A stretch of 64,000 nucleotides of DNA from positions 6,088 through 70,087 of the forward strand of contig CALZJE010000003.1 in NCBI GenBank assembly GCA_945787715.1. Direction: 5' to 3'. Source of the stretch: an uncultured Ectothiorhodospiraceae bacterium. GTDB lineage: Bacteria > Pseudomonadota > Gammaproteobacteria > S012-40. A model generated the notes under the pieces. The model was not told the origin of the DNA, searched no databases, and saw only the letters and a program-made list of their open reading frames with translations. Below are positions 13,129-30,631 of the stretch, piece after piece (the stretch's first letter is position 1; each line of letters begins with the position of its first letter). The position numbers were made by a program, and so were the translations under genes.

Positions 13129-13701
13129 ATGTCTCAAATCATTATCGATTCAAGTAGTACAGAACAATGGCAAAAGTTGGTTCATGAAGCAGAATCTTTA
13201 TGTGAATTTCAATTAGACGAAGAGTTAGAAAGCTATTTGGTATTTTTATTAATGCGCTTTTTAGGTCGTTCGGACTTTACTTCTCGAATAATGGCGATGG
13301 ATTATCTTCATAGCCTAATCCAAACCGGTCAATTACAACAGGAAAGCTTAAGAGATGTGGGGGATCACTGTTTACTGTTTTCTGGTCTATTCCCAAAAAT
13401 AGCAGAGAGACGAAGTGTGAAAATTAGCTACTACGTTGGGATTGGCAAAAGTGCGTATAGCCACTTGGCTGATACCTGCAAAGAAAGTTTAGGAACTTTT
13501 TACCGCCAGTTAGCTGATGCTTTTGTGCAACTAATGGATATTCTTCAAGTAATTGGCAATATGCGAAACAACGCAGAAGTTCTTTCGCCATTAGAAGCAC
13601 TAGAATTATGGGGAGATACTCAAAGTAAACAAGCACTTAGATCCATCCGAAGCTTTTCAAAGGGAACACCAATAATTCATTCGCAATCCACAAAGCATTA
13701 A
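13129..13701 (+). CDS. Hypothetical protein
   Basis: 190-aa ORF with coding-like composition and no overlap with other genes. I recognised no motif. Confidence 0.45.
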   Translation: MSQIIIDSSSTEQWQKLVHEAESLCEFQLDEELESYLVFLLMRFLGRSDFTSRIMAMDYLHSLIQTGQLQQESLRDVGDHCLLFSGLFPKIAERRSVKISYYVGIGKSAYSHLADTCKESLGTFYRQLADAFVQLMDILQVIGNMRNNAEVLSPLEALELWGDTQSKQALRSIRSFSKGTPIIHSQSTKH

Positions 13702-13822
13702 ATAATATTTTCGGCATAAATAATGTATTTATTACAGTAAGCAGCTTTAGCTATCTTTAGTTTCGTGATTTGATAATTAACCCAGCCGAATTAAATTCGA
13801 AGTCTTTCTTTTCTTTTCCCAC

Positions 13823-14082
13823 AGTTATCCACTTCCTCTAATAAATAATATATCTATATATAAAAACTTATTGTTATTATTGGTTCAATCATTTTTGTGG
13901 TTAAGTTTCGATTTAGTTATATTTTTCATCATCTTACTGAGAGTTTTTTGTATTAACAAATTGTATAAATATACTTAACTAAGCTGTGGGTAACTTGTTC
14001 ACAAAAAGCGTTATTTTCCGTTCCGATTTTCTATTAACAAGTTATCAACAGTCTATTCCAATTTTATACACGTGTTTTTAAG
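13823..14082. repeat. DnaA-box module copy A
   Basis: Aligns along its length with 14462-14724. Examples: ATATATCTATATATAAAAAcTT.. against ..aTT.., and TAAGCTGTGGgTAACTTGTTcACAAA against TAAGCTGTGGaTAACTTGTTtACAAA. Both copies end in ..TTATACACG.GT..TTTAAG. Confidence 0.7.
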
Positions 14083-14461
14083 AATAAATGGCGATCTACG
14101 AGTATTTACCGTTACTAGGTTAGTTAAATACCAGTATTTTTTATGGATATGATTATTACTCGATTCAAACGCAGTGCTTTATTGCAGAAATGCTTTTAAA
14201 ATGACTGATAATTATTAACCACTCTTTTCACATTTACTCTCCAAAATAAAACATTTCTATTATTAGGGGAATAAGAGTTGAATTTAGTGATAATATTTCT
14301 TATAAGAATTTTTTGGCTTTTTACAGATCTTCAAAAACTTTCTACCGGCATAAAATTTGAATCTAATTTATTAAACATATTAACCCCTTTATGTTTTTGG
14401 CTGCTGGTTTGAGACTTCCCCTTAAAACTCAGATCAGCAGCTTTCCTTTATTATTTTTCTT

Positions 14462-14724
14462 TAGTTATTAACATCTCTATATATAAATATATATCTATAT
14501 ATAAAAATTTGTTGTTGTTATTGAGTCTAAAATATTTGTGGGTAACTTCTATTATCTTATTATTATTCAATATGTTATTTATCAGTATAAGGCTCAACAA
14601 GTTGTATGGATATACTCATCTAAGCTGTGGATAACTTGTTTACAAATATGGTCTTTTTTACATAGAAAATTTTATCAACAGCTTATACACAAGCTACACA
14701 AGTGTTATACACGCGTTCTTTAAG
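14462..14724. repeat. DnaA-box module copy B
   Basis: Direct repeat of copy A at an offset of about 641 bp. It carries the only perfect DnaA box in the region. Confidence 0.7.
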
Positions 14725-16143: not shown

Positions 16144-17303
16144 GCGATCAATCGGAGCAATCTGAATCCGCAGTCAGATACCAGCAAGTAAAAAAAGTCA
16201 CCTTAATTGGTGCTCTCGTTAATGCATTCCTAGCCGCATCTAAAATTATCCTGGGTTACATTGGTCAATCACAAGCTCTAGTTGCTGATGGAGTTCATTC
16301 CTTAGCGGATCTAGTTAGCGATATTATTGTGGTATATGCAGCGAAACATGGATCCCGCCAAGCAGACGAAGACCATCCGTACGGTCACGGTCGTATAGAA
16401 ACGGTTGTAGAAGTTTTATTAGGTTTTTTGCTTATTGCTGTAGCACTTGGTATTACGATCGATGCAGTATCAAGAATTAATACGCCCGATCTACTTCTTT
16501 CGCCGACTTGGTTTGCATTAGTAGCAGCATTGATTTCGATTTTTGCGAATGAAGTGCTGTTTCAATATACATTTACAGTTGGTAAGAAAGTAAAATCCAA
16601 CTTACTCATTGCCAACGCCTGGCATCATCGAACAGACGCAATCTCTTCAGTAATTGCACTTATTGGGATTGCAGGTGCGATGCTTGGTTTTCCTTTATTG
16701 GATGCGGTAGCGGCGATTGGTGTTAGCCTTCTTATTTCAAAAGTTGGCTGGGATATTTCTTATCGTGCATTTAAAGAGCTTATTGATACTGCACTTGAAG
16801 CAGAAAAAGTTGAAAAAATAAAAGCATTAATTTTATCGGTAGATGGCGTTAAAGCTGTCCATTCTTTACGGACACGAAGCATGGGCACCTATGCTCTTGT
16901 GGATGTCCACATTTTAGTGGTAAATTCACGTATTAGTGTCTCAGAGGGACATCAGATTAGCGAAAGCGTAATGTACAGGTTACTTAAGGGGATTGATGAG
17001 GTATCCGACGTAACCGTCCATATTGATCCGGAAGATGATGAAACTTGTGCACCATGCAGATATTTGCCATTACGTAAAGATTTTCAAATTTATCTGAACT
17101 CTGTATTCGAGAACAATAGTTACTATGATCGAGTGACAAAATCTACACTGCATTATTTGAATGGAAAAATTATTGTTGAGTTGGTTTTACCGGTTTCAAT
17201 ACTAGATGAAAATATCACCGCCAGTGATATTTTTTCTTCGTTCAAAGATTTCGAAGATCCAAAAAGCTACATCGCAGAAATTAATATTCTCTTTGGATTG
17301 TGA
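16140..17303 (+). CDS. Cation diffusion facilitator (CDF) family metal efflux transporter
   Basis: Six transmembrane segments with HSLADLVSD (TM2) and WHHRTDAISS (TM5) metal-site motifs, plus a C-terminal cytoplasmic domain. Overlaps the TusA-like gene by 4 nt. Confidence 0.85.
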   Translation: MSDQSEQSESAVRYQQVKKVTLIGALVNAFLAASKIILGYIGQSQALVADGVHSLADLVSDIIVVYAAKHGSRQADEDHPYGHGRIETVVEVLLGFLLIAVALGITIDAVSRINTPDLLLSPTWFALVAALISIFANEVLFQYTFTVGKKVKSNLLIANAWHHRTDAISSVIALIGIAGAMLGFPLLDAVAAIGVSLLISKVGWDISYRAFKELIDTALEAEKVEKIKALILSVDGVKAVHSLRTRSMGTYALVDVHILVVNSRISVSEGHQISESVMYRLLKGIDEVSDVTVHIDPEDDETCAPCRYLPLRKDFQIYLNSVFENNSYYDRVTKSTLHYLNGKIIVELVLPVSILDENITASDIFSSFKDFEDPKSYIAEINILFGL

Positions 17304-20891: not shown

Positions 20892-22307
20892 ATGGCAAAA
20901 AAAGAACATATTTGGGTCATTGATGACGACAAATCAATTCGCTGGGTGTTAGAGCGTGCTTTAAGCAAAGCGGATATGGATGTTGATTGCTTTGAAAGCG
21001 CTTCAGGTATTCTCGATAAACTATCAAAAGGATTACCGGATGCGATAGTTTCGGATATTCGCATGCCAGGACAAGATGGTTTGGCGCTTCTTTCAGACAT
21101 TAATAAAGCTTATCCTGATCTCCCAGTAATCATTATGACGGCTCACTCCGATCTGGACAGTGCGGTATCGTCCTATGAAGGCGGTGCATTTGAATATTTG
21201 CCTAAACCCTTTGATGTTGACGATGCAGTTGATCTGGTAAGACGAGCAGTGGATCATAGTAGAAGTGCTACTACTAACGTCAGTGAACAAACTGAAGCTA
21301 CACAAACAGAAATTATTGGCGAAGCAGCAGCGATGCAGGAAGTGTTTCGAGCGATTGGGAGATTATCTCGTTCGAATATCACCGTTATGATAAATGGTGA
21401 ATCTGGGACGGGTAAGGAGCTTGTTGCGAGTGCACTTCATCGCCATAGTCCAAGAGCGTCTAATCCTTTTATCGCACTAAATACCGCTGCTATTCCAAAA
21501 GATTTATTGGAATCAGAACTATTTGGTCACGAAAGAGGTGCTTTTACTGGCGCGCAAACAACACGACGTGGCCGTTTTGAACAGGCTGATGGCGGAACAT
21601 TGTTTCTTGATGAAATTGGTGATATGCCCGCCGATTTACAAACTCGGCTTTTGCGGGTTTTAGCATCTGGAGAATTCTATCGGGTTGGTGGTCATGATCC
21701 CGTTAAAGTCAATGTTAGAATTATTGCAGCCACACACCAAGACCTGGAAGAGCGAGTAGGTAAAGGAAAATTCAGGGAAGACCTATTTCATCGTTTAAAT
21801 GTTATACGTATACATTTACCCGCCTTACGTGAAAGGCAAGAAGATATTCCACTATTGTTAAACTATTTTCTCGTTCGAGCAGCGAAGGAATTAAGTGTTG
21901 ATGTAAAAAGATTAAGGCCTGAAACTGCAAAGTTTTTGAGTCAGTTACAGTGGCCAGGTAATGTAAGACAGTTAGAAAATGTGTGCCGCTGGTTAACTGT
22001 GATGGCCCCAGGTCCTGAAATTCATGTAGAAGATCTTCCGGCGGAATTAAGAGAAGATGTGGTTAAAGCAAGCAGCAATTCTGATTGGGAAGGCGCTTTA
22101 AAGCTTTGGGCAAAAAGCAAGCTCTTGGCAGATGATCAAGGTATTATGGAGAATGCGACTCCCAGGTTCGAAAAAATATTGATAGAAGTTGCTTTAGCGC
22201 ATACCGCTGGGCGAAAACAGGAAGCTGCTAAATTGCTCGGAATTGGTAGAAATACACTGACGAGAAAGTTGAAAGAACTCAAAATAATTAGTGACGATGC
22301 AGCGTAA
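20892..22307 (+). CDS. ntrC: Nitrogen regulation response regulator NtrC (sigma-54 activator)
   Basis: Receiver domain (VIDDD..SDIRMPG..LPKP), AAA+ domain [14 protein letters not shown] loop, C-terminal Fis-type HTH. Confidence 0.93.
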
Positions 22308-22631
22308 CACTAGCTCCTGGCTATCTCCACTAACCGGTGAACTTGTACAGCAATCAAACCAATTCCTTGCACTCCAATCTCATACTCAACGGATCTTTTA
22401 AGATTTATCTTATCGGTTCCATTCCCGTATTAAACTTAGAAAAAAGTAGATTCATGAAATATACTCTGAGGGCTGTAACCCAACCCTTGTTTCGCCTAGC
22501 GATATGAAAAGCAATACTTTGTGTTTTTTTGATAGCCAGCTGCCTTTTCTAGGATAAGCCTAGAAAAATCAGTTGATCCGTGATTTAGCGCACAACCACT
22601 TGATTCACTTGGCAATATGAAAAGTATTTGA

Positions 22632-22648
22632 ATCACCAACCTGGTGAT
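22632..22648. promoter_or_regulatory. Perfect palindrome; enhancer (UAS) candidate
   Basis: ATCACCA-ACC-TGGTGAT, i.e. 7-3-7 with the same architecture as NtrC sites, located about 200 bp upstream of the sigma-54 promoter at 22837. Confidence 0.4.
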
Positions 22649-22736
22649 CATAAATATTTTCATTACGCCAATCAAACCGCACACTTGCATGCTAATTTCG
22701 CATCCAACAGATCTTTCTAGGTTAAACGTTTTTAGC

Positions 22737-22752
22737 GCGAAGTTTCCTTCGC
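22737..22752. promoter_or_regulatory. Second palindrome; enhancer (UAS) candidate
   Basis: GCGAAG-TTTC-CTTCGC, about 90 bp upstream of the -24 element. Related TTCGC motifs are at about 22707 (TTCGCATCC) and about 22790 (CTTCGCTTCGAA). Confidence 0.35.
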
Positions 22753-22836
22753 ATCAATTTACTTCATTATTCAAAAATACGAATCAATCTTCGCTTCGAA
22801 AACATTTAAGTCATTGTTTTATATATGTATTAATCT

Positions 22837-22852
22837 TGGCATTCATTCTGCT
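22837..22852 (+). promoter_or_regulatory. Sigma-54 (-24/-12) promoter of the five-gene cassette
   Basis: TGGCAT-TCATT-CTGCT with GG (22838-39) and GC (22850-51) 12 nt apart. It lies 56 nt upstream of ATG 22908, which has the SD AAAGGAG. Confidence 0.7.
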
Positions 22853-22907
22853 CCTATGCAAGAGATTAGTTTGATGTGATATTCAACCACGAATAAAGGA
22901 GAACAAC

Positions 22908-23627
22908 ATGCATGATTTAGATCAGACCCAACTCGATTATAGCCGTGCAGAGTTTGATGATGACGAGTTTGAGTTAGAAGGGGAGTTCGAAAATGATATG
23001 GCTGTGTCAGGTGCTGATGAATATGAGGATGAGGATGAGTTTGAAAGTGAATATGAGTTCGAATCCAACTTTGATGGAAACAGTCCTTTTAGTGAAGCAG
23101 AGGAAATGGAGCTTGCTGCGGAATTAATGGAAATTGCAGACGATGGGGAATTGGAATATTTTCTAGGTAGGCTGATTAAACGCGGCGCTCGACGGGTTGG
23201 TCGTAGGCTACGTAAACGTGTAGGTACACGGTTGAGAAAGGGGTTAAAAAGACTTGCTAAACGCGGTTTGAGATTCGCAGGTGGAGCTGTTGGTGGTGCG
23301 TTAGGTGGTCCTGTTGGAGCCGTGGTAGGACGAGCTGCGGGTCGTGGATTGGGAAAAGTGTTTGGACTTGAATTAGAAGGTATGAGTCTGGAAGACCAAG
23401 AGTTTGAAGCAGCGCGTCAATTTGTTCGGCTTGCAGGTGATGCTACCTCTACTGCAACAGCAATTCCCTCTTCTGTTAATGAAGAAGTTGTTGCTCACAA
23501 GGCGCTGAAAAGATCAGTGGTAAAATTTGCACCGGGACTCGCAGGTAAAACCAGACGCTCTGTTCGTGGAGAAAAATCTGGACGCTGGGTTCGTAAAGGT
23601 TCTAGCATCATTCTAATGGGTGTTTGA
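22908..23627 (+). CDS. Tripartite acidic / poly-cationic / glycine-zipper protein (candidate pro-toxin or pro-peptide)
   Basis: 239 aa. Residues 1-85 contain 35 D/E and one Arg (DEYEDEDEFESEYEFES). Residues 88-122 contain 18 R/K and no acidic residue (RLIKRGARRVGRRLRKRVGTRLRKGLKRLAKRGLR). Residues 123-153 contain 12 Gly (AGGAVGGALGGPVGAVVGRAAGRGLGKVFG). The tail is basic (..GRWVRKGSSIILMGV). Strong SD; first gene after the sigma-54 promoter. Confidence 0.7.
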   Translation: MHDLDQTQLDYSRAEFDDDEFELEGEFENDMAVSGADEYEDEDEFESEYEFESNFDGNSPFSEAEEMELAAELMEIADDGELEYFLGRLIKRGARRVGRRLRKRVGTRLRKGLKRLAKRGLRFAGGAVGGALGGPVGAVVGRAAGRGLGKVFGLELEGMSLEDQEFEAARQFVRLAGDATSTATAIPSSVNEEVVAHKALKRSVVKFAPGLAGKTRRSVRGEKSGRWVRKGSSIILMGV

Positions 23628-24946
23628 GTCCCATGACTACCCCGCTGGTACGACAAGTTCTGAGCAATGAGACTCAAGCACTGATGGCTCGTCTCAGAGG
23701 AATTAAGCCGTTTTCCTTACATGTGCCGATGGTTGCTGCCGCTGCTTTGCAAACTTCAGCTCAACAATTGATAGAGCAGCATATGCACAGGGTATTGTCG
23801 TCAGTCGCTCAGATGCTCGGAACATATGAAGACTGGTTAAATAGTGAGGCGGGGCGTCGAACCAAAGATGCCACTGCACAGCGACATCTAACACTGGTGA
23901 GATTGCGTTTCCATGCAGCATTGACGCAGTTTGATCTTTTTTCAGATGTACTTACTCAGCGTAGTGAACATGAGTTTGGTGTCTGGCTCGCTGGACTTGA
24001 TGCACTAGCAGTGGATGCATTAAAAATAGAAGGAAAATACTTCGAACTGCCAGGTGTCGCGTGTTATCTAGATCGAGGAATAGGTGCTGCTATTCGACGG
24101 GTACGTACACGCTTACCTGGCGGGCGTGAAAATCCTGTTGCTATAATTCGAGTTCCTCGTGAGCGGATGATTGGCTCAGGCATCGCTTCATCGTTGGTTC
24201 ATGAAGTCGGGCATCAGGGTGCTGCGTTGCTAAACCTTGTGGAATCATTACGAAAGGAATTGCAGAGAAAAATTCATTCTGACGGATCGCCGTGGCGTTT
24301 ATGGCAACAATGGATATCAGAAATCATTGCTGACTTTTGGTCTGTAGCGCAGATCGGTGTGGGTTCTACTTTGGGTTTAATGGGTGTTGTTAGCTTACCG
24401 CGTGCATTTGTATTTAGAATTAGTGAAGAGGATCCTCATCCTTCACCGTGGATACGAGTCATGTTGAGTGCATCGATTGGCCAAGCCCTTTATCCGGATT
24501 CTCAATGGCGTCGTCTTCGTGAAGTTTGGATGCGTCTTTATCCGCGCACAGGTATCGATCCGGAAAAGGAACAACTGTTTCAAGGTTTGGAAGCTACGAT
24601 ACAGGAGTTTGTTGAGTTATTAACTCAACATCGGCCACGAACACTAGAAGGGATATCATTGTTAGAAATTTTCCCTGTTTCAGATAGACAACCAGATCGG
24701 TTAAGAAACTTATATGGTCAATGGTCAGGGAGGTTTAACGCTTGGCGCACCTCGTCCCCGGCGTTAGCGTTTGCCGTTATCGGACAAGCACGCGCTGATG
24801 ATCGACTAAGTGTATCAGATGAATCGAATCTTATTAATAGACTATTAAACCATTGGGCATTCAATCGAAATGATTTAAATAATCAATGCGGATGTAGACC
24901 TAAGGCGAATGCATATTCAACTGCAGTTATATCTACTGCGTTATAA
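23624..24946 (+). CDS. Orphan HExxH (gluzincin-like) putative metallopeptidase
   Basis: 440 aa. SSLVHEVGHQG (H193-H197, nt 24200-24214) with a candidate third ligand E233 in WISEIIADFW. The TTG 23624 / ATG 23633 start overlaps or abuts the upstream stop, which suggests translational coupling. Confidence 0.55.
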   Translation: MSPMTTPLVRQVLSNETQALMARLRGIKPFSLHVPMVAAAALQTSAQQLIEQHMHRVLSSVAQMLGTYEDWLNSEAGRRTKDATAQRHLTLVRLRFHAALTQFDLFSDVLTQRSEHEFGVWLAGLDALAVDALKIEGKYFELPGVACYLDRGIGAAIRRVRTRLPGGRENPVAIIRVPRERMIGSGIASSLVHEVGHQGAALLNLVESLRKELQRKIHSDGSPWRLWQQWISEIIADFWSVAQIGVGSTLGLMGVVSLPRAFVFRISEEDPHPSPWIRVMLSASIGQALYPDSQWRRLREVWMRLYPRTGIDPEKEQLFQGLEATIQEFVELLTQHRPRTLEGISLLEIFPVSDRQPDRLRNLYGQWSGRFNAWRTSSPALAFAVIGQARADDRLSVSDESNLINRLLNHWAFNRNDLNNQCGCRPKANAYSTAVISTAL

Positions 24947-24957
24947 GGAGTCTTGTA

Positions 24958-26826
24958 ATGAAACAAATAGATAATATATCGATTATACAATCTCACCATG
25001 CCGTAGTGCCGGACGGTGCAGTTTCTCTACGCTTATCAGAGAACTATGTAGATGTAACAAAGTACACATATATTTGGCGTACTCCTGAATCGTTGGGTGA
25101 GTTTAATTATATTGATCAACCCAATGTTATATGGACCGCTCCATTAAAAGCAGCAGGTGTGGTAGAAATAAGCGTAGAGATTATGCCTAAAAGCGGACAG
25201 AGTGGAGGTAAGAAACGCAATACACGTGCTTCATCGGAAAATTCCACGGCTGAATCTACACATCTCGAAAATATAGAGACAATAATCATCTCAACTACGG
25301 TGGAAGTTACGCCAAATGCTTTGCCTTTAGATGTAGTTGGTGCGATTGGAGAAGGTGTTAAGGCTATCAAAGAGGGTCTACCCGGTCAGGAAATACGTTT
25401 GGAGCGACAATTTCCTGCGCTTACGCCTCAAAAATCATTGTGGGCTATTATTCGCGACCGTACCAATGCAATTTCATTTAACAATTACAAAGCATTTATC
25501 GACTCGATTATGTGTGGCGGTGATACCTATCACAGCAAACAGATTCCCCATGAAGTTAAAGAATATGTCAATTTTGATCCGAGTAAATTGCACTACCGAG
25601 GTACCGAGTCGTATGAGGTTTTACGAAAAGCGACAGAAGCATTTCTGATGCATGAAATTGGTGCTTTACCCACTCCCGTAAATGAATCTGAAAAATTTCC
25701 CTTAGCAGACCCTGCTGAACAAAAACGGCGTTTACCACAACTCGCGGGTTCAAATGACGAAGAAGTTCAAATGGAAATGGAAAGTAATCGAACTGAATAT
25801 TTAAAAACATTGGAAGACGAAAGTCGGACCTTTCCTTATTTTAAACTTATCCGCGATCGTTTAAGTGAGATACCCCTTAAACCTCCTGGCTCATCAGGAG
25901 AAGGATGTTATGGATTATTGCGTTCGCGAATTTCACCACCAATTTTACTAGAATTAATCTGGTCTTATTGGCACGAAGAAGGAGGTTTGGTGCAAACAAT
26001 GAAAGCCATTAATATGCGCTTTCAGAACCGTTTATATAATCCACGTAAAAATGGGAGCGATCCGTTGGCTAATCTTAACTTGGATCCGTTACGTCCTATG
26101 AGCAATATTATTTGGGGATATATTCAAAATGAGCACGAGCATTTAACGTTATCAAGACGCGCTTATGAATACGATCATCATTATGGATTCAGTATCGCCG
26201 GAAAGGCAGTACCCAAACTCAACTCTGCCGATAGCCGTACTAAATTTTTAGAGGCGTTTCACAGTCTTCTTCATCGTGCCTCGGTGTTTTACAAAGAGCA
26301 ATCTGATACAACTAAAGTACCCGATGGTTATCCGTTGCTAAATGGATTGAAGGAATGTCATTTGTTGCTGGCTGAAGGTGCACATAACCAATTTGGTGAT
26401 TTACCCTGGACAGCGCGTATTGAAATGCTCATCGAGCAATGGATGTTAGCGCGGCCAGAAACACGGAATTTTTTGAACCGACGAGTGATGGTGCCTTACT
26501 CAGAAGAGTGGATGCCAGCGGTTGATCAAATGAAAGACTTGCAAGGTTGGTCAGGTGGTACCGTGCGTCATTTTCGAGATCTAGGAACGTTCGGTGAACA
26601 AATCTTGTTGTCAGTACGTTATGGAGATTGGAGTGAAAATTTTAATGAAGATGAAGCCAAAATCTGGGCTCAGTATTGGCGACAGGAGATTCAAGGTTAT
26701 ATCAATGCGTATCGTTCAGTAACGAGTGTAGACTTGGGATCGGATGCAGATCTGGCAAATGCTACGCTATCTCGTCAACGATCGACTGCACCTGCCGAGT
26801 TATTGAAACAGCAAGGTACTCGTTGA
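24958..26826 (+). CDS. Large hypothetical protein, no recognisable domain
   Basis: 622-aa uninterrupted ORF with SD AAGGAG 7 nt upstream. An N-terminal ~75-aa beta-rich module and a Ser/Gly/Lys linker are followed by a Trp/His-rich helical body (LLELIWSYWHEEGGLVQTMKAINMRFQN). Confidence 0.6.
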   Translation: MKQIDNISIIQSHHAVVPDGAVSLRLSENYVDVTKYTYIWRTPESLGEFNYIDQPNVIWTAPLKAAGVVEISVEIMPKSGQSGGKKRNTRASSENSTAESTHLENIETIIISTTVEVTPNALPLDVVGAIGEGVKAIKEGLPGQEIRLERQFPALTPQKSLWAIIRDRTNAISFNNYKAFIDSIMCGGDTYHSKQIPHEVKEYVNFDPSKLHYRGTESYEVLRKATEAFLMHEIGALPTPVNESEKFPLADPAEQKRRLPQLAGSNDEEVQMEMESNRTEYLKTLEDESRTFPYFKLIRDRLSEIPLKPPGSSGEGCYGLLRSRISPPILLELIWSYWHEEGGLVQTMKAINMRFQNRLYNPRKNGSDPLANLNLDPLRPMSNIIWGYIQNEHEHLTLSRRAYEYDHHYGFSIAGKAVPKLNSADSRTKFLEAFHSLLHRASVFYKEQSDTTKVPDGYPLLNGLKECHLLLAEGAHNQFGDLPWTARIEMLIEQWMLARPETRNFLNRRVMVPYSEEWMPAVDQMKDLQGWSGGTVRHFRDLGTFGEQILLSVRYGDWSENFNEDEAKIWAQYWRQEIQGYINAYRSVTSVDLGSDADLANATLSRQRSTAPAELLKQQGTR

Positions 26827-26863
26827 TGCCCATGTTTCACCTCAACTCTTACTACTAGGAGGG

Positions 26864-27694
26864 ATGATAATGTTTGAAGATGGAGATTACGATGATTTAC
26901 GTGAGGAAAAGTTTCTGAACTGGCCAGAAAGGAACAGACCTCCACGCCTAAAAAGTCGGATTGCTGCCCTACATCGTTCTTATTCGCCTGATCCAGTAGG
27001 TCGGGTTCAGCGTAATAACTCAATACGATCAAAAGATGATATGGTGGAATTTAATTTTTCAGGTTTAGAAGTAGACGGATTTATTTCACGAGAGGTAGAA
27101 GATGAACAGTTTCTAAATTATTTATGGCCATTCTCATCAGATCCCAATATTGTGGATCGCACAGCTTATTCACCTAAGTCTAAGCGAAAGAAAATTCGAG
27201 ATATTGATACAGTTTATGCACTGGTTTTACATCAAGCAGGCTTTAGTCGTGGAAATGATCCTAAAAAATATAATAATGTGACTTCTCATTTTGTCATTAT
27301 GCCAAACGGAACTATTCTTCAACTCCACCCTTTGACTGCCTATTTATATTCTTCCAATGGGTTTAATCGGGGTAGTGTAGCTGTTGAATTTATCGGTAAT
27401 TTTCCTAGCGAGCGTGGCAGATGCTGGAAACCTGAAAAGTATGGTTGTAATCAGGTTTCAAACGATCAAATTGAGGCAGGTCGACAATTAATTAGATATT
27501 TAAGGAAAAAAATAGGGCTGACTCACGTGTTGGCGCACCGTCAATCGAGTGGTTCGAGAGGCAATGATCCGGGGCCAGACCTTTGGCACCAAGTTGGGCA
27601 ATGGGGTGTAAATAAGCTAGGGCTAAATGATGGGGGGCATGGTTTTAAAATTCAGTCGGGTAAGGCAATTCCTGATTCATGGCGTAAAACTTAG
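26864..27694 (+). CDS. N-acetylmuramoyl-L-alanine amidase, amidase_2 (AmpD/PGRP/T7-lysozyme) fold, no signal peptide
   Basis: YALVLHQAGFS (first His ligand), GSVAVEFIGNF, and LAHRQSSGSRGNDPGPDLW (His, then Asp 10 residues later, followed by DPGP). About 110 aa of unassigned N-terminal extension precede the domain. The likely start is ATG 26870, downstream of AGGAGG. Confidence 0.8.
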   Translation: MIMFEDGDYDDLREEKFLNWPERNRPPRLKSRIAALHRSYSPDPVGRVQRNNSIRSKDDMVEFNFSGLEVDGFISREVEDEQFLNYLWPFSSDPNIVDRTAYSPKSKRKKIRDIDTVYALVLHQAGFSRGNDPKKYNNVTSHFVIMPNGTILQLHPLTAYLYSSNGFNRGSVAVEFIGNFPSERGRCWKPEKYGCNQVSNDQIEAGRQLIRYLRKKIGLTHVLAHRQSSGSRGNDPGPDLWHQVGQWGVNKLGLNDGGHGFKIQSGKAIPDSWRKT

Positions 27695-27730
27695 ATCGAA
27701 AAACCATTAAATATAATCATTGAAGGAAAA

Positions 27731-28645
27731 TTGGTGAGAGATATGAGGTCTTATGAAGAACTAAGTAGAGTTTCCCATGAAAATGGCAAAGATAAAGAGT
27801 TTTATTATAAGTCGAAGGTTAGACCGGTTTCTAATTCTATGGGTGATTTTAGTCAACAGGAAATTGTTGACGATTTTGACGATAGAAAAAGACTTGGCAG
27901 TATCAAAGATACACCTTATAGGTGGATATGCATGCTGGATTTGCACACAAAAAGTGGATTATTTGGTGGGACTGGAGTACTCATTTCCCCCAGACACATT
28001 CTTACGGCTGGGCATAACCTAGATGGTTGTAATAAAGTAGTAGTGGTGCCTGGAATTAATGGTCGCTTCAAGCCATTTGGAAGTTACGAATCTACAACGA
28101 TGATTGCCCACGATAAATGGAAAAAACATAGAGACGATAATTTTGATATTGGCATGATAAAACTTTCCAAACCGGTTGGGAATCAAAGGTTTAATTCAAT
28201 AAAGGGAAATGTTCTGGGTCATTGGGGACATTCTGCTTTCGGAATGGGTACGAGAATTATACCATTTGTGCAGAGCAATCAATTAAACAAAAAAGCAAAT
28301 ATTGCTGGTTATCCAAGTGATAAAGGATTTACGCAGCTTTGGTGGGATGCGGGTAAAATTGTCAATACCGCGCCTGCCAAAGCATCAGGAGCAATCTATT
28401 ACACTATGGATACATGTGGTGCTCAAAGTGGAAGTCCAGTTTGGTTAAGAAGTAAAAGTTCAGGAGCAAGATTTTTAATTGCTATACATAGTGGTCCATG
28501 TTTATTAGATGGCTCAGATTGCAAAGAATTATCTGGAAAGCTTTGTCCCGGTAGTAGTTTACGTAAACCACACTCTTCTAATATGGGGGTATTTTTAACA
28601 GCGGGACTAATTAAGACGATTAGAAGTTGGATTCGCTCTATGTAA
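27731..28645 (+). CDS. S1B (V8-like, COG3591-type) trypsin-fold serine endopeptidase, no signal peptide
   Basis: Catalytic triad contexts ILTAGHNL (His), NFDIGMIKL (Asp) and DTCGAQSGSPVW (Ser, GxSGSPV as in V8/SspA). The likely start is ATG 27746. Confidence 0.8.
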   Translation: MVRDMRSYEELSRVSHENGKDKEFYYKSKVRPVSNSMGDFSQQEIVDDFDDRKRLGSIKDTPYRWICMLDLHTKSGLFGGTGVLISPRHILTAGHNLDGCNKVVVVPGINGRFKPFGSYESTTMIAHDKWKKHRDDNFDIGMIKLSKPVGNQRFNSIKGNVLGHWGHSAFGMGTRIIPFVQSNQLNKKANIAGYPSDKGFTQLWWDAGKIVNTAPAKASGAIYYTMDTCGAQSGSPVWLRSKSSGARFLIAIHSGPCLLDGSDCKELSGKLCPGSSLRKPHSSNMGVFLTAGLIKTIRSWIRSM

Positions 28646-28735
28646 TCGCTATTAGAAATAATACCAAACAAATTTGTTCAACGTTATAAGTATTAAAGGT
28701 TTCGATAACTAACAAGTAAGTGTATTAATGACAGT

Positions 28736-30085
28736 TTATGAATGATTTTCTTGTTGCTTGCGCAACTGTAGCGCTCGCGGCGTAATTTTTAATTGCTTTG
28801 CAATCTTCGCGGTAGAGCCATTATGTTCAGCCATAGCAACATCGATAGCAACATCGGCGGCAGCACTACTAATTTCTTTTAAGCCCACGCCCAGTGAGAG
28901 TGCTTTACGAACAGCGGCTTCAAGATCTCCACGGCGCCAGTCACTCGTTTCTCTTGTGATGTTTTGAAATTCATCGTGGGGTATATCACCGATCGTATAT
29001 TGGCCGTCGCAAACATGACGGCCTCGCATGCGTAAGCAAAGCTGTCGAAGATCACGAATATTACCAGGATAAGCACGATTAATGAGATGGTGCTGTACGG
29101 CTGAGTCGAGTTCTGGATTTATATCATTTTGATGACGGAGGAAATGTTTAGCTAACGATAGAATGTCTTCCTTACGTTGTGAAAGTGATGGCAGCGTAAC
29201 GGTCCAATCTGCGAGACGGTAATAAAGATCACGGCGAAAACGCCCTGCTTCAATTTCTTCTAATAAATTTCGATTTGTAGCGCAGACTAGTCTGAAATCG
29301 GTGTCATGCCATGTGTTGCCACCGACTCGTTTGTAACGTTTTTCTTGAAAAACGCGTAGCAGTTGCACTTGAAGATCCAATGGCAACTCGCCGACTTCGT
29401 CTAGAAATAAGACACCACCGTCGGCCCGCGAAAATGCTCCTTCACGTTGACTACCTGCTCCGGTAAAAGCACCGCGCTCGTGACCAAAAAATTCACTGCC
29501 AGATAGGCTTGGGACAATGGTGGCACAATCTACTATGCTAAGTTCCTGCTGACTACGCAGAGGATCTACGGAATGAATAACTTTTGCAGCGAGTTCTTTT
29601 CCTGTTCCCGTTTCACCGTTAATTAAAACTGCATAATCACTAAATCTCGCGGCTTCAACAATTTGCCTTAAGGCCATTAGCCAAGGTATGCTGTGGCCAA
29701 TGACGATATCTTGTATTTCTGGGGAATTAGTGATTTTATTTACTCTCTCCCAACGACGAAGACGTACTGCAATATGGTCAGCTGTTTTACCTTCGTTGTC
29801 CCATAAGACGACGTCACTCGCGCCAGCTTCAATCAAACGATATACATCGTTACTATTTAGGTAGTCTGGGTTTGTGGTTACTGCGATAACGCGCTGTTGG
29901 GTTCTACAAGAGAATTTAGAAATACAGCTATATACATTGTCATCGGCATGATCGAATACGATAATCGCGGCTTTCGCATTATCTTTTGTATCGTCAATAC
30001 AAAAAATCACGCCTCGATTAATGAGGATTTGATGGATCGAATCGCGATTCACTACACCCAAGCAATTTAGGACTGTCCGTGTCAT
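28736..30085 (-). CDS. Sigma-54-dependent transcriptional activator (bEBP) with atypical receiver-like N-domain
   Basis: AAA+ domain with GETGTGKE, an intact GAFTGA loop ([13 protein letters not shown]), Walker B LFLDEVGEL, and a C-terminal HTH (STAKIAKQLKITPRALQLR). The N-terminal ~120 aa are receiver-like, but VLWD replaces the K-P motif. Convergent with the cassette. Confidence 0.9.
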   Translation of the reverse strand: MTRTVLNCLGVVNRDSIHQILINRGVIFCIDDTKDNAKAAIIVFDHADDNVYSCISKFSCRTQQRVIAVTTNPDYLNSNDVYRLIEAGASDVVLWDNEGKTADHIAVRLRRWERVNKITNSPEIQDIVIGHSIPWLMALRQIVEAARFSDYAVLINGETGTGKELAAKVIHSVDPLRSQQELSIVDCATIVPSLSGSEFFGHERGAFTGAGSQREGAFSRADGGVLFLDEVGELPLDLQVQLLRVFQEKRYKRVGGNTWHDTDFRLVCATNRNLLEEIEAGRFRRDLYYRLADWTVTLPSLSQRKEDILSLAKHFLRHQNDINPELDSAVQHHLINRAYPGNIRDLRQLCLRMRGRHVCDGQYTIGDIPHDEFQNITRETSDWRRGDLEAAVRKALSLGVGLKEISSAAADVAIDVAMAEHNGSTAKIAKQLKITPRALQLRKQQENHS

Positions 30086-30631
30086 TTGCCACCTCTGGAT
30101 TCACACTGATTTTTTTGGGTATTACATTACCCATCTTATGTTTATTAGCTACCAGGTAATTACACAGAACCCACAAACCATGTAAATCTAGGGTGGTTAT
30201 TTCATTATGAAATTTGTTGAAGAAAGTCAATCAATCATTGAAATATTATTTATCATGGTAGAAAAAAGGTAAAACTTATAACTGTTTTTTTAAATATTGA
30301 TCAGCAATTCGTTACGATATGAAGTAATGTAGTGAAAATTACCAAAACTTAAAAACTGTGCAGTAGTTAGTACTAAACCATTGTTTTCTTAAAACTTACT
30401 TAAGACTATTTAAAGTGAGTTAATCAGAATGTCAGTAGTCGGATAATCCAATCTTCAAGTGTATTATTTCTCTTGCTGTATCCGGCAATTTAAACAACAA
30501 AATGTAGGCCAACACCGATATACATTGAAAGATATTAGATTCACCGCTTAGTTTCGTTTGATATTGGACAAGGCTATTATTTTTAAATTCTCATAATTAC
30601 GATATGATATTCATTTTTATGAATGTGAATT

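Follow-up and report, generated by a model that had tools for sequence, protein, structure and literature searches.

A putative M48-like zinc peptidase in a conserved gene cassette with cell-wall hydrolases and a sigma-54-type promoter-like element

A 64,000-nucleotide (nt) stretch of contig CALZJE010000003.1 from an uncultured Ectothiorhodospiraceae bacterium (assembly GCA_945787715.1, positions 6,088 to 70,087, forward strand; hereafter the window) encodes a 437-amino-acid (aa) protein, p2, which carries an HExxH motif and whose gene begins where that of a highly charged protein, p1, ends. This arrangement raises the question of whether p2 is a zinc peptidase and, if so, whether p1 is what it acts upon. 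An earlier note on this DNA, made from the sequence alone, had described p2 as an orphan HExxH protein co-produced with p1, possibly as its dedicated maturation protease. The analysis presented here indicates that p2 is likely a peptidase and, with a probability of roughly 0.5, that it is a divergent M48-like zinc peptidase whose task is to process the p1 module as part of an inducible cassette directed at the cell envelope. The gene and its putative active-site motifs are positioned as follows.

23633 to 24946, forward strand: p2, 437-aa M48-like HExxH protein (from the open reading frame list, homologue alignment, motif conservation and an AlphaFold2 model)
24200 to 24214, forward strand: HEVGH, residues 190-194, two putative zinc ligands and the putative catalytic Glu (invariant in a 30-sequence alignment)
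24320 to 24334, forward strand: E230-I-I-A-D234, ExxAD 'glutamate helix' with the putative third zinc ligand (E230 and D234 invariant)
24437 to 24457, forward strand: H269-P-S-P-W-I-R275, HPx4R M48 'active-site plug' motif (H269, P270 and R275 invariant)

The open reading frame runs on the forward strand from either TTG 23624 or ATG 23633 to 24946, as the earlier note had it. The ATG is the likelier start, since homologues begin where it sits in the alignment and the database copy of p2 is 437 aa long. Residue numbers are counted from this codon throughout (H190, E191, H194, E230); counted from TTG 23624, HEVGH occupies residues 193-197, which agrees with the position first reported for it. 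The p1 stop codon (TGA 23625-23627) overlaps the TTG and ends 5 nt before the ATG, in keeping with the overlapping or abutting start that had been described. Spacing is also tight elsewhere, with gaps of 1-7 nt or a 4-nt overlap between the two genes in the gene tables drawn up for several individual cassette loci. The stoichiometric co-production of p1 and p2 that had been read from this spacing does not follow, as tight spacing does not show it.

At the motif level, the gluzincin assignment proposed for p2 holds. Counting from the second His, the Glu of WISEIIADFW (nt 24320-24322) is indeed 36 residues further on, within an ExxxD/ExxAD helix, with an invariant HPx4R beyond it; H190, E191, H194, S229, E230, D234, H269, P270 and R275 are among the residues that are invariant in the 30-sequence alignment. 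Conservation of the HExxH motif among homologues, a point left for checking, is borne out: HE[VAI]GHQ is present in 157 of 161 full-length family members, and is kept together with E..AD and HP....R in 156 of them. The three motifs are also common to four aligned Escherichia coli M48 proteins (BepA, HtpX, LoiP and YcaL), and HPx4R is conserved throughout Pfam family PF01435 (PMC7950410). The zinc ligands of BepA are H136, H140, E201 and H246, and searching with the pattern H-E-x-x-H-x(30,140)-H-P-x(4)-R selectively recovers M48 proteins (Bryant et al.; PMC7950410). This pattern fits p2 (H190...H269PSPWIR275, with E230IIAD234 in between and H269 beginning 74 residues after H194). It occurs in 72/72 p2 homologues and in all four E. 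coli M48 proteins, versus 0/1236 other open reading frames of the same loci and 1/20,000 shuffles of p2. Given the 156/161 conservation and the single matching shuffle, the motif is far beyond chance. M48 (BepA, HtpX, LoiP, YcaL, Ste24; PF01435) is the closest enzyme family, with HExxH, ExxAD and HPx4R in common. The thermolysin/neprilysin gluzincins (M4, M13) differ from p2 in spacing and overall fold, and p2 is placed nearer to M48 because the HPx4R motif points there.

A structure model places these motifs within the protein. AlphaFold2 models the whole of p2 with a predicted local distance difference test score (pLDDT) of 80.5 and a predicted template modelling score (pTM) of 0.83. From the N-terminus onwards, the model contains a three-helix bundle, two strands (142-147 and 170-175), a helix (183-199) with HEVGH at its middle, a short helix and a further helix (220-241) on which E230 and D234 lie. 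H269 is in the loop that comes next, and the C-terminal domain is helical. The modelled order of strand, strand, catalytic helix and glutamate helix is what a zincin core needs. Neither the model nor hydropathy reveals a membrane segment, sensor domain or signal peptide in p2. The protein would accordingly be a soluble cytoplasmic zinc metallopeptidase, with zinc held by H190, H194 and E230 and with E191 as the catalytic base. H269 in the HPx4R loop may be the counterpart of the M48 'plug' at the fourth zinc position, holding p2 shut in the absence of a substrate or partner, as in BepA. If so, p2 would represent an M48-type active site in a soluble, cytoplasmic family that current models miss.

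The description of p2 as an orphan proved wrong. Among the best 8,000 candidates of a word-indexed search, homologues at E <= 1e-3 form at least 5,354 protein clusters, all annotated as 'hypothetical protein' and none with a Pfam domain; beyond the closest relative, the best matches are 53-59% identical across 93-100% of the length. An exhaustive hidden Markov model search of 1.84 billion representatives at 50% identity returned 867 matches at E <= 1e-3, 227 of them at E <= 1e-30. A scan of one genome per species confirmed at least 558 genomic stretches with a homologue, in about ten phyla (Beta-, Gamma- and Alphaproteobacteria, Acidobacteriota, Chloroflexota, Planctomycetota, Verrucomicrobiota, Nitrospirota, Deinococcota, Calditrichia, Myxococcota and Desulfobulbales). 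Its members form a compact group with an unusual degree of conservation. No homologue occurs in 50,697 phage records, and those borne on plasmids are found only on megaplasmids or chromids. Two distant paralogues are known, one at 28% identity on plasmid pBq66S1MBa of Bradyrhizobium quebecense (locus L097, 5491-6912; catalytic motifs HEVGHE, SEIFPD and HPNHYLR) and one at 25% identity in Paraburkholderia, located behind acidic/cationic precursor-like open reading frames. Both keep the three catalytic motifs despite their other gene contexts. Long p2 representatives of 550-820 aa that resemble fusions were dropped as Rosetta-stone evidence, because they are frameshifted translations from high-GC metagenomes that span p1, p2 and p3.

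The functional tie of p2 to the gene before it, as proposed in the earlier note, is strongly supported by synteny. Gene neighbourhoods were taken from gene tables of six places and counted by tblastn over 80 species-level loci; for p1, the count covers loci with enough flanking sequence. The gene is positioned as follows.

22908 to 23627, forward strand: p1 (gene 1), 239 aa (a p1-family gene lies directly upstream of p2 in 74/74 loci)

In total, 577 homologues of p1 were found at E <= 1e-3, and scans of p1 against Pfam, NCBIfam, PADLOC and PHROGs returned nothing useful. The protein is sharply divided by charge. Residues 1-85 form an acidic N-terminus with a net charge of -34, followed by a cationic amphipathic stretch (residues 86-123; net charge +18) with a helical hydrophobic moment of 0.99, compared with 0.56 +/- 0.14 in shuffles, and by a Gly/Ala-rich segment (residues 124-160; 19/37 Gly or Ala). 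Beyond these come a conserved LELEG.S.ED.EFE.A..FVR.A helix, then APGL and a C-terminal GRW.R.G..I.L.G. The N-terminal part common to the family comprises MHD, a variable acidic stretch, F.E.EEMELAAELLEV..E.ELDQFLG and then a Lys/Arg- and Gly-rich segment. Its ELDxFLG-type motif sets p1 modules apart, being carried by 96/103 p1 matches and rare elsewhere; it was considered as a possible recognition site that p1 might share with the amidase and trypsin-like protease of the window (p4 and p5, below) and rejected, as both lack it. Two-module p1 proteins exist (e.g. P0275 and P0296), some precursors having two or more modules. The module also occurs within large PG_binding_1, GIY-YIG-like and Amidase_2 proteins, and in tandem copies (locus L011, 14651-17032; L029, 14238-16172; L054, 6263-9310). 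The charge split, the multi-module precursors and the modules embedded in hydrolases all fit a maturation protease for a pro-peptide-like protein, and to this extent that proposal stands; that p1 is the substrate of p2 is put here at slightly short of even odds.

The p1-p2 pair belongs to a larger unit that the earlier note missed, comprising p1, p2, a third protein (p3), cell-wall hydrolases, a sigma-54-type promoter and an activator. The remaining features of this cassette in the window are as follows.

22837 to 22852, forward strand: sigma-54-type -24/-12 promoter-like element TGGCATTCATTCTGCT, with GG at 22838-22839 and GC at 22850-22851 (9/12 against TGGCACGNNNNTTGCW)
24958 to 26826, forward strand: p3, 622 aa, with a variable N-terminal part and a conserved C-terminal domain of ~420 aa (directly downstream of p2 in 67/67 loci)
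26864 to 27694, forward strand: p4, N-acetylmuramoyl-L-alanine amidase, Amidase_2, endolysin-like (Pfam E 4.4e-12; PHROG endolysin family E 6.9e-12)
27731 to 28645, forward strand: p5, trypsin-like serine protease (Pfam Trypsin E 2.2e-9, Trypsin_2 E 3.4e-7)
28736 to 30085, reverse strand: sigma-54-dependent activator, AAA+ and HTH_8 (Pfam Sigma54_activat E 3.1e-56)

The -24/-12 element lies ~55 nt upstream of the p1 ATG. When promoter elements were scored out of 12 against the same consensus, 37/73 related loci had one that reached the cross-locus cut-off of at least 10/12 ahead of their first p1 gene, versus 0/73 control stretches, and 38/44 loci have a sigma-54 activator within 10 kb. The N-terminal ~125 aa of the window's activator match no Pfam family, Response_reg included; NtrC, encoded next to the cassette (20892-22307), has the usual receiver domain. 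Two imperfect inverted repeats (22609-22671 and 22722-22809; arms of 30 and 33 nt, 70-73% complementary) lie 30-230 nt upstream of the element and are possible candidates for activator binding sites. In the actinobacterium Nocardiopsis sp. YSL2, the cassette has its own sigma-54 gene, rpoN (locus L090, 8532-9845; Sigma54_CBD and Sigma54_DBD), between p2 and a two-module p1, suggesting that the cassette travels as a self-sufficient regulatory unit. The amidase of this Nocardiopsis cassette is 57% identical to that of the window.

Cell-wall domains dominate the genes downstream of the p1-p2-p3 triad. A Pfam scan of 105 downstream proteins detected PG_binding_1 (28), Amidohydro_2 (21), PG_binding_3 (13), Amidase_2 (6), OmpA (6) and Trypsin (5), with M20, M23, CHAP, muramidase, VanY, M15, gamma-polyglutamate hydrolase, Extensin-like_C and DUF2272 among the further domains. 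The set of hydrolases differs by locus, and p1 is constant. Further p1 modules occur downstream in 26/55 loci. An Amidohydro_2 protein is present in 51/55 loci and an alpha-oxoamine-synthase-type pyridoxal phosphate (PLP) enzyme in 50/55. The latter is of the BioF/Kbl/CqsA type and matches bioF at E 1.8e-22, far below the bioF cut-off; examples of the PLP enzyme and the Amidohydro_2 protein are found at 13461-14573 and 16151-16957 of locus L001. The window harbours a short version of the cassette, consisting of p1, p2, p3, the Amidase_2 protein, the trypsin-like protease and, encoded on the other strand, the activator, without the PLP enzyme and the amidohydrolase; the Pelagibius locus likewise lacks both. 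Proteins of the p3 type are 500-750 aa long across loci and have homologues in at least 4,663 clusters, all 'hypothetical'. Many invariant His, Glu, Tyr and Trp residues (LLELIWSYWHEEG, YEYDHHYG, AHNQFGDLP) occur in the C-terminal domain of p3, which has no match in Pfam, NCBIfam, PADLOC, PHROGs or PDB sequences. Some p3 members have transthyretin/CarboxypepD_reg-like N-terminal domains. No signal-peptide-like or transmembrane stretch was detected by hydropathy in any of p1 to p5.

These components suggest how the cassette may work. It would be off by default, with its own sigma-54 activator switching on the p1-p2-p3 triad together with the signal-less hydrolases. The p1 module would be a charge-neutralized precursor composed of an acidic propiece, a cationic amphipathic segment and a Gly-zipper-like segment. 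Cleavage by p2 would remove or separate the acidic part and free a cationic, amphipathic, Gly-rich, membrane-active peptide, which, alone or attached to a hydrolase, could open the membrane and let the signal-less hydrolases reach the peptidoglycan. The outcome would be self-lysis of the producer or killing of other bacteria after release. Of these, an attack from inside the cell, or release by lysis, is somewhat favoured, because neither immunity-gene candidates nor export signals are present in the window. More broadly, and only tentatively, p1-p2-p3 may form the core of a widespread, sigma-54-gated 'pro-toxin plus convertase' module for lysis or killing that has moved between phyla as a self-contained unit. 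The M48-like protease would serve there to activate a membrane-active peptide whose charge is masked, either alone or fused to a peptidoglycan hydrolase, an extension of the argument that is equally tentative.

Several observations weigh against p2 being an M48-like enzyme that processes p1. The earlier note's remark that the rest of p2 resembles no M-family peptidase stands insofar as profile and fold searches alike return no peptidase family, though it overlooked the three-part M48 signature. No family was assigned to p2 in Pfam, NCBIfam, PADLOC 2.0 or PHROGs, a Pfam scan of 30 family members at E-values up to 10 gave no PF01435 match, and searches of PDB sequences (phmmer and profile search) gave none either. 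Alignment of p2 to a profile of the E. coli M48 proteins with hhalign yields a probability of 8-13% and aligns the HExxH helix alone. The distance from HExxH to the Glu is 36 residues in p2, compared with 59-83 (from the HExxH start) in E. coli M48 proteins, and the strands ahead of the catalytic helix are modelled at low confidence. With respect to p1, the Gly/Ala-rich stretch stays under the usual transmembrane threshold of 1.6, the most hydrophobic 19-mer having a Kyte-Doolittle value of 1.36, and p3, the hydrolases and p2 itself are equally possible substrates. p2 further differs from M48 proteins in being cytoplasmic and soluble, with neither signal peptide nor membrane helices, in its extra N-terminal three-helix bundle and C-terminal helical domain, and in its link to a sigma-54 cassette rather than to envelope quality control. 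p2 appears to work like an M48 gluzincin at the level of motifs, and its membership of the family is putative. Weak matches to TY-Chap1 (E 0.05) and DUF533 were dismissed as noise.

A first alternative is that p2 acts as a guard or immunity protease that degrades or trims p1, or hydrolase-borne p1 modules, inside the producer and so renders them harmless, making it an antitoxin instead of an activator. The synteny and coupling evidence would apply to such a role in the same way, and the window cassette contains neither a separate immunity gene nor a protein with a signal peptide. HtpX works in quality control, which also counts in favour of this role. The same applies to BepA, another M48 enzyme with a role in quality control (PMC7950410). 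However, the acidic propiece would already provide p1 with a built-in neutralizer, a degrader that shares the promoter of its target would be wasteful, and the multi-module p1 precursors look like maturation substrates, making the guard role improbable.

The variation of the hydrolase set between loci, set against the constancy of p1, also bears on a second possibility, which is comparably unlikely: that p2 is active on something other than p1, be it p3, pro-forms of the hydrolases, peptidoglycan-derived or other small peptides, or a component of the activator pathway in BlaR1-like (M56) signalling. This would accommodate the fact that p3 is tied to p2 as strictly as p1 is, that the downstream enzymes all act on peptidoglycan peptides and that the window hydrolases bear N-terminal extensions. 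It is opposed, in addition to the constancy of p1, by the recurrence of acidic/cationic precursor-like open reading frames ahead of the Paraburkholderia paralogue and by the lack of a membrane segment or sensor domain in p2.

More doubtful still is a non-catalytic p2, in which the conserved His, Glu and Asp residues would serve a structural role with a metal or partner and the protein would be a chaperone or scaffold holding p1 and p3. The catalytic Glu, all ligand positions and the plug motif are invariant down to 25% identity, and a scaffold would not need them, despite the large three-helix-bundle N-terminal and helical C-terminal domains beside the motif region, a very weak match to a type III secretion system chaperone family (E 0.05) and a Foldseek search of the PDB that gave no significant match to any peptidase fold (best E-value 0.33). 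The idea that HExxH arose by accident in an orphan reading frame restricted to one lineage has next to no probability, being refuted by the size of the family and the conservation of the motif.

The closest system logics are those of holin-endolysin cassettes and of pore systems that pair a precursor with a protease, though the components match neither. As in holin-endolysin cassettes, cytoplasmic, signal-less, endolysin-type enzymes (Amidase_2, muramidase, CHAP, M15/VanY and M23, with PG_binding_1/3) are combined with a small protein that looks membrane-active, in a co-expressed and tightly controlled unit. In contrast to holins, p1 has no clear transmembrane helix, and the phage records mentioned above contain no p2 homologue; the p2 cassette moreover adds a protease, the large p3 and, in most loci, the PLP enzyme and the amidohydrolase. 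In bacterial gasdermin-protease pairs and in eukaryotic antimicrobial-peptide precursors, a dedicated protease removes the inhibitory segment of a membrane-active precursor. p1 is like those antimicrobial-peptide precursors with anionic propieces, in that an acidic propiece balances a cationic peptide. It shares no sequence similarity with gasdermins, and p2 is a predicted metallopeptidase. p2 appears to be an M48-like enzyme, and the system around it may be new in its entirety; no published description of p1, p2, p3 or the cassette was found in the full-text literature. PADLOC 2.0 defence models match none of p1, p2 and p3, and the sole matches in the cassette are to generic models, from the activator's AAA+ region and the trypsin domain.

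The three families p1, p2 and p3 have hundreds to thousands of members each, yet have neither a name nor a domain model. Carriers include environmentally important bacteria such as Nitrosomonas, Nitrospira, Accumulibacter, Competibacter, Methylococcales, Janthinobacterium, Variovorax, Bradyrhizobium, Acidobacteriota and Chloroflexi. Culturable carriers include Janthinobacterium lividum, Variovorax, Pseudoduganella, Bradyrhizobium sp. Ai1a-2 and Nitrosomonas communis Nm44. As a putative M48-like peptidase, p2 offers the first mechanistic handle on the cassette, suggesting a point mutation to introduce and a substrate to seek. If the cassette is an inducible device for lysis or killing, it bears on cell death in wastewater and soil consortia, and may reveal new routes for the export or activation of wall hydrolases, as well as natural peptide-enzyme fusions of antibacterial interest. 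Should p2 act as a convertase, it would represent a prokaryotic counterpart of antimicrobial-peptide maturation, serving either programmed self-lysis (e.g. in abortive infection or the release of goods) or an Artilysin-like weapon against neighbours.

In the window, the cassette sits between glnA-ntrB-ntrC and genes for a SpoU methylase, gpsA and secB. Its GC content (41-48% over 22800-30100) exceeds that of the flanks (35-39%). Bounded by ntrC and the SpoU-type methylase gene, the cassette makes up a discrete insertion of ~7.5 kb, and the window contains no tRNA gene. The B. quebecense paralogue is found between a PLD-like gene and two CHAT-domain genes, with patatin-like and S8 peptidase genes nearby, a neighbourhood that looks like a conflict system.

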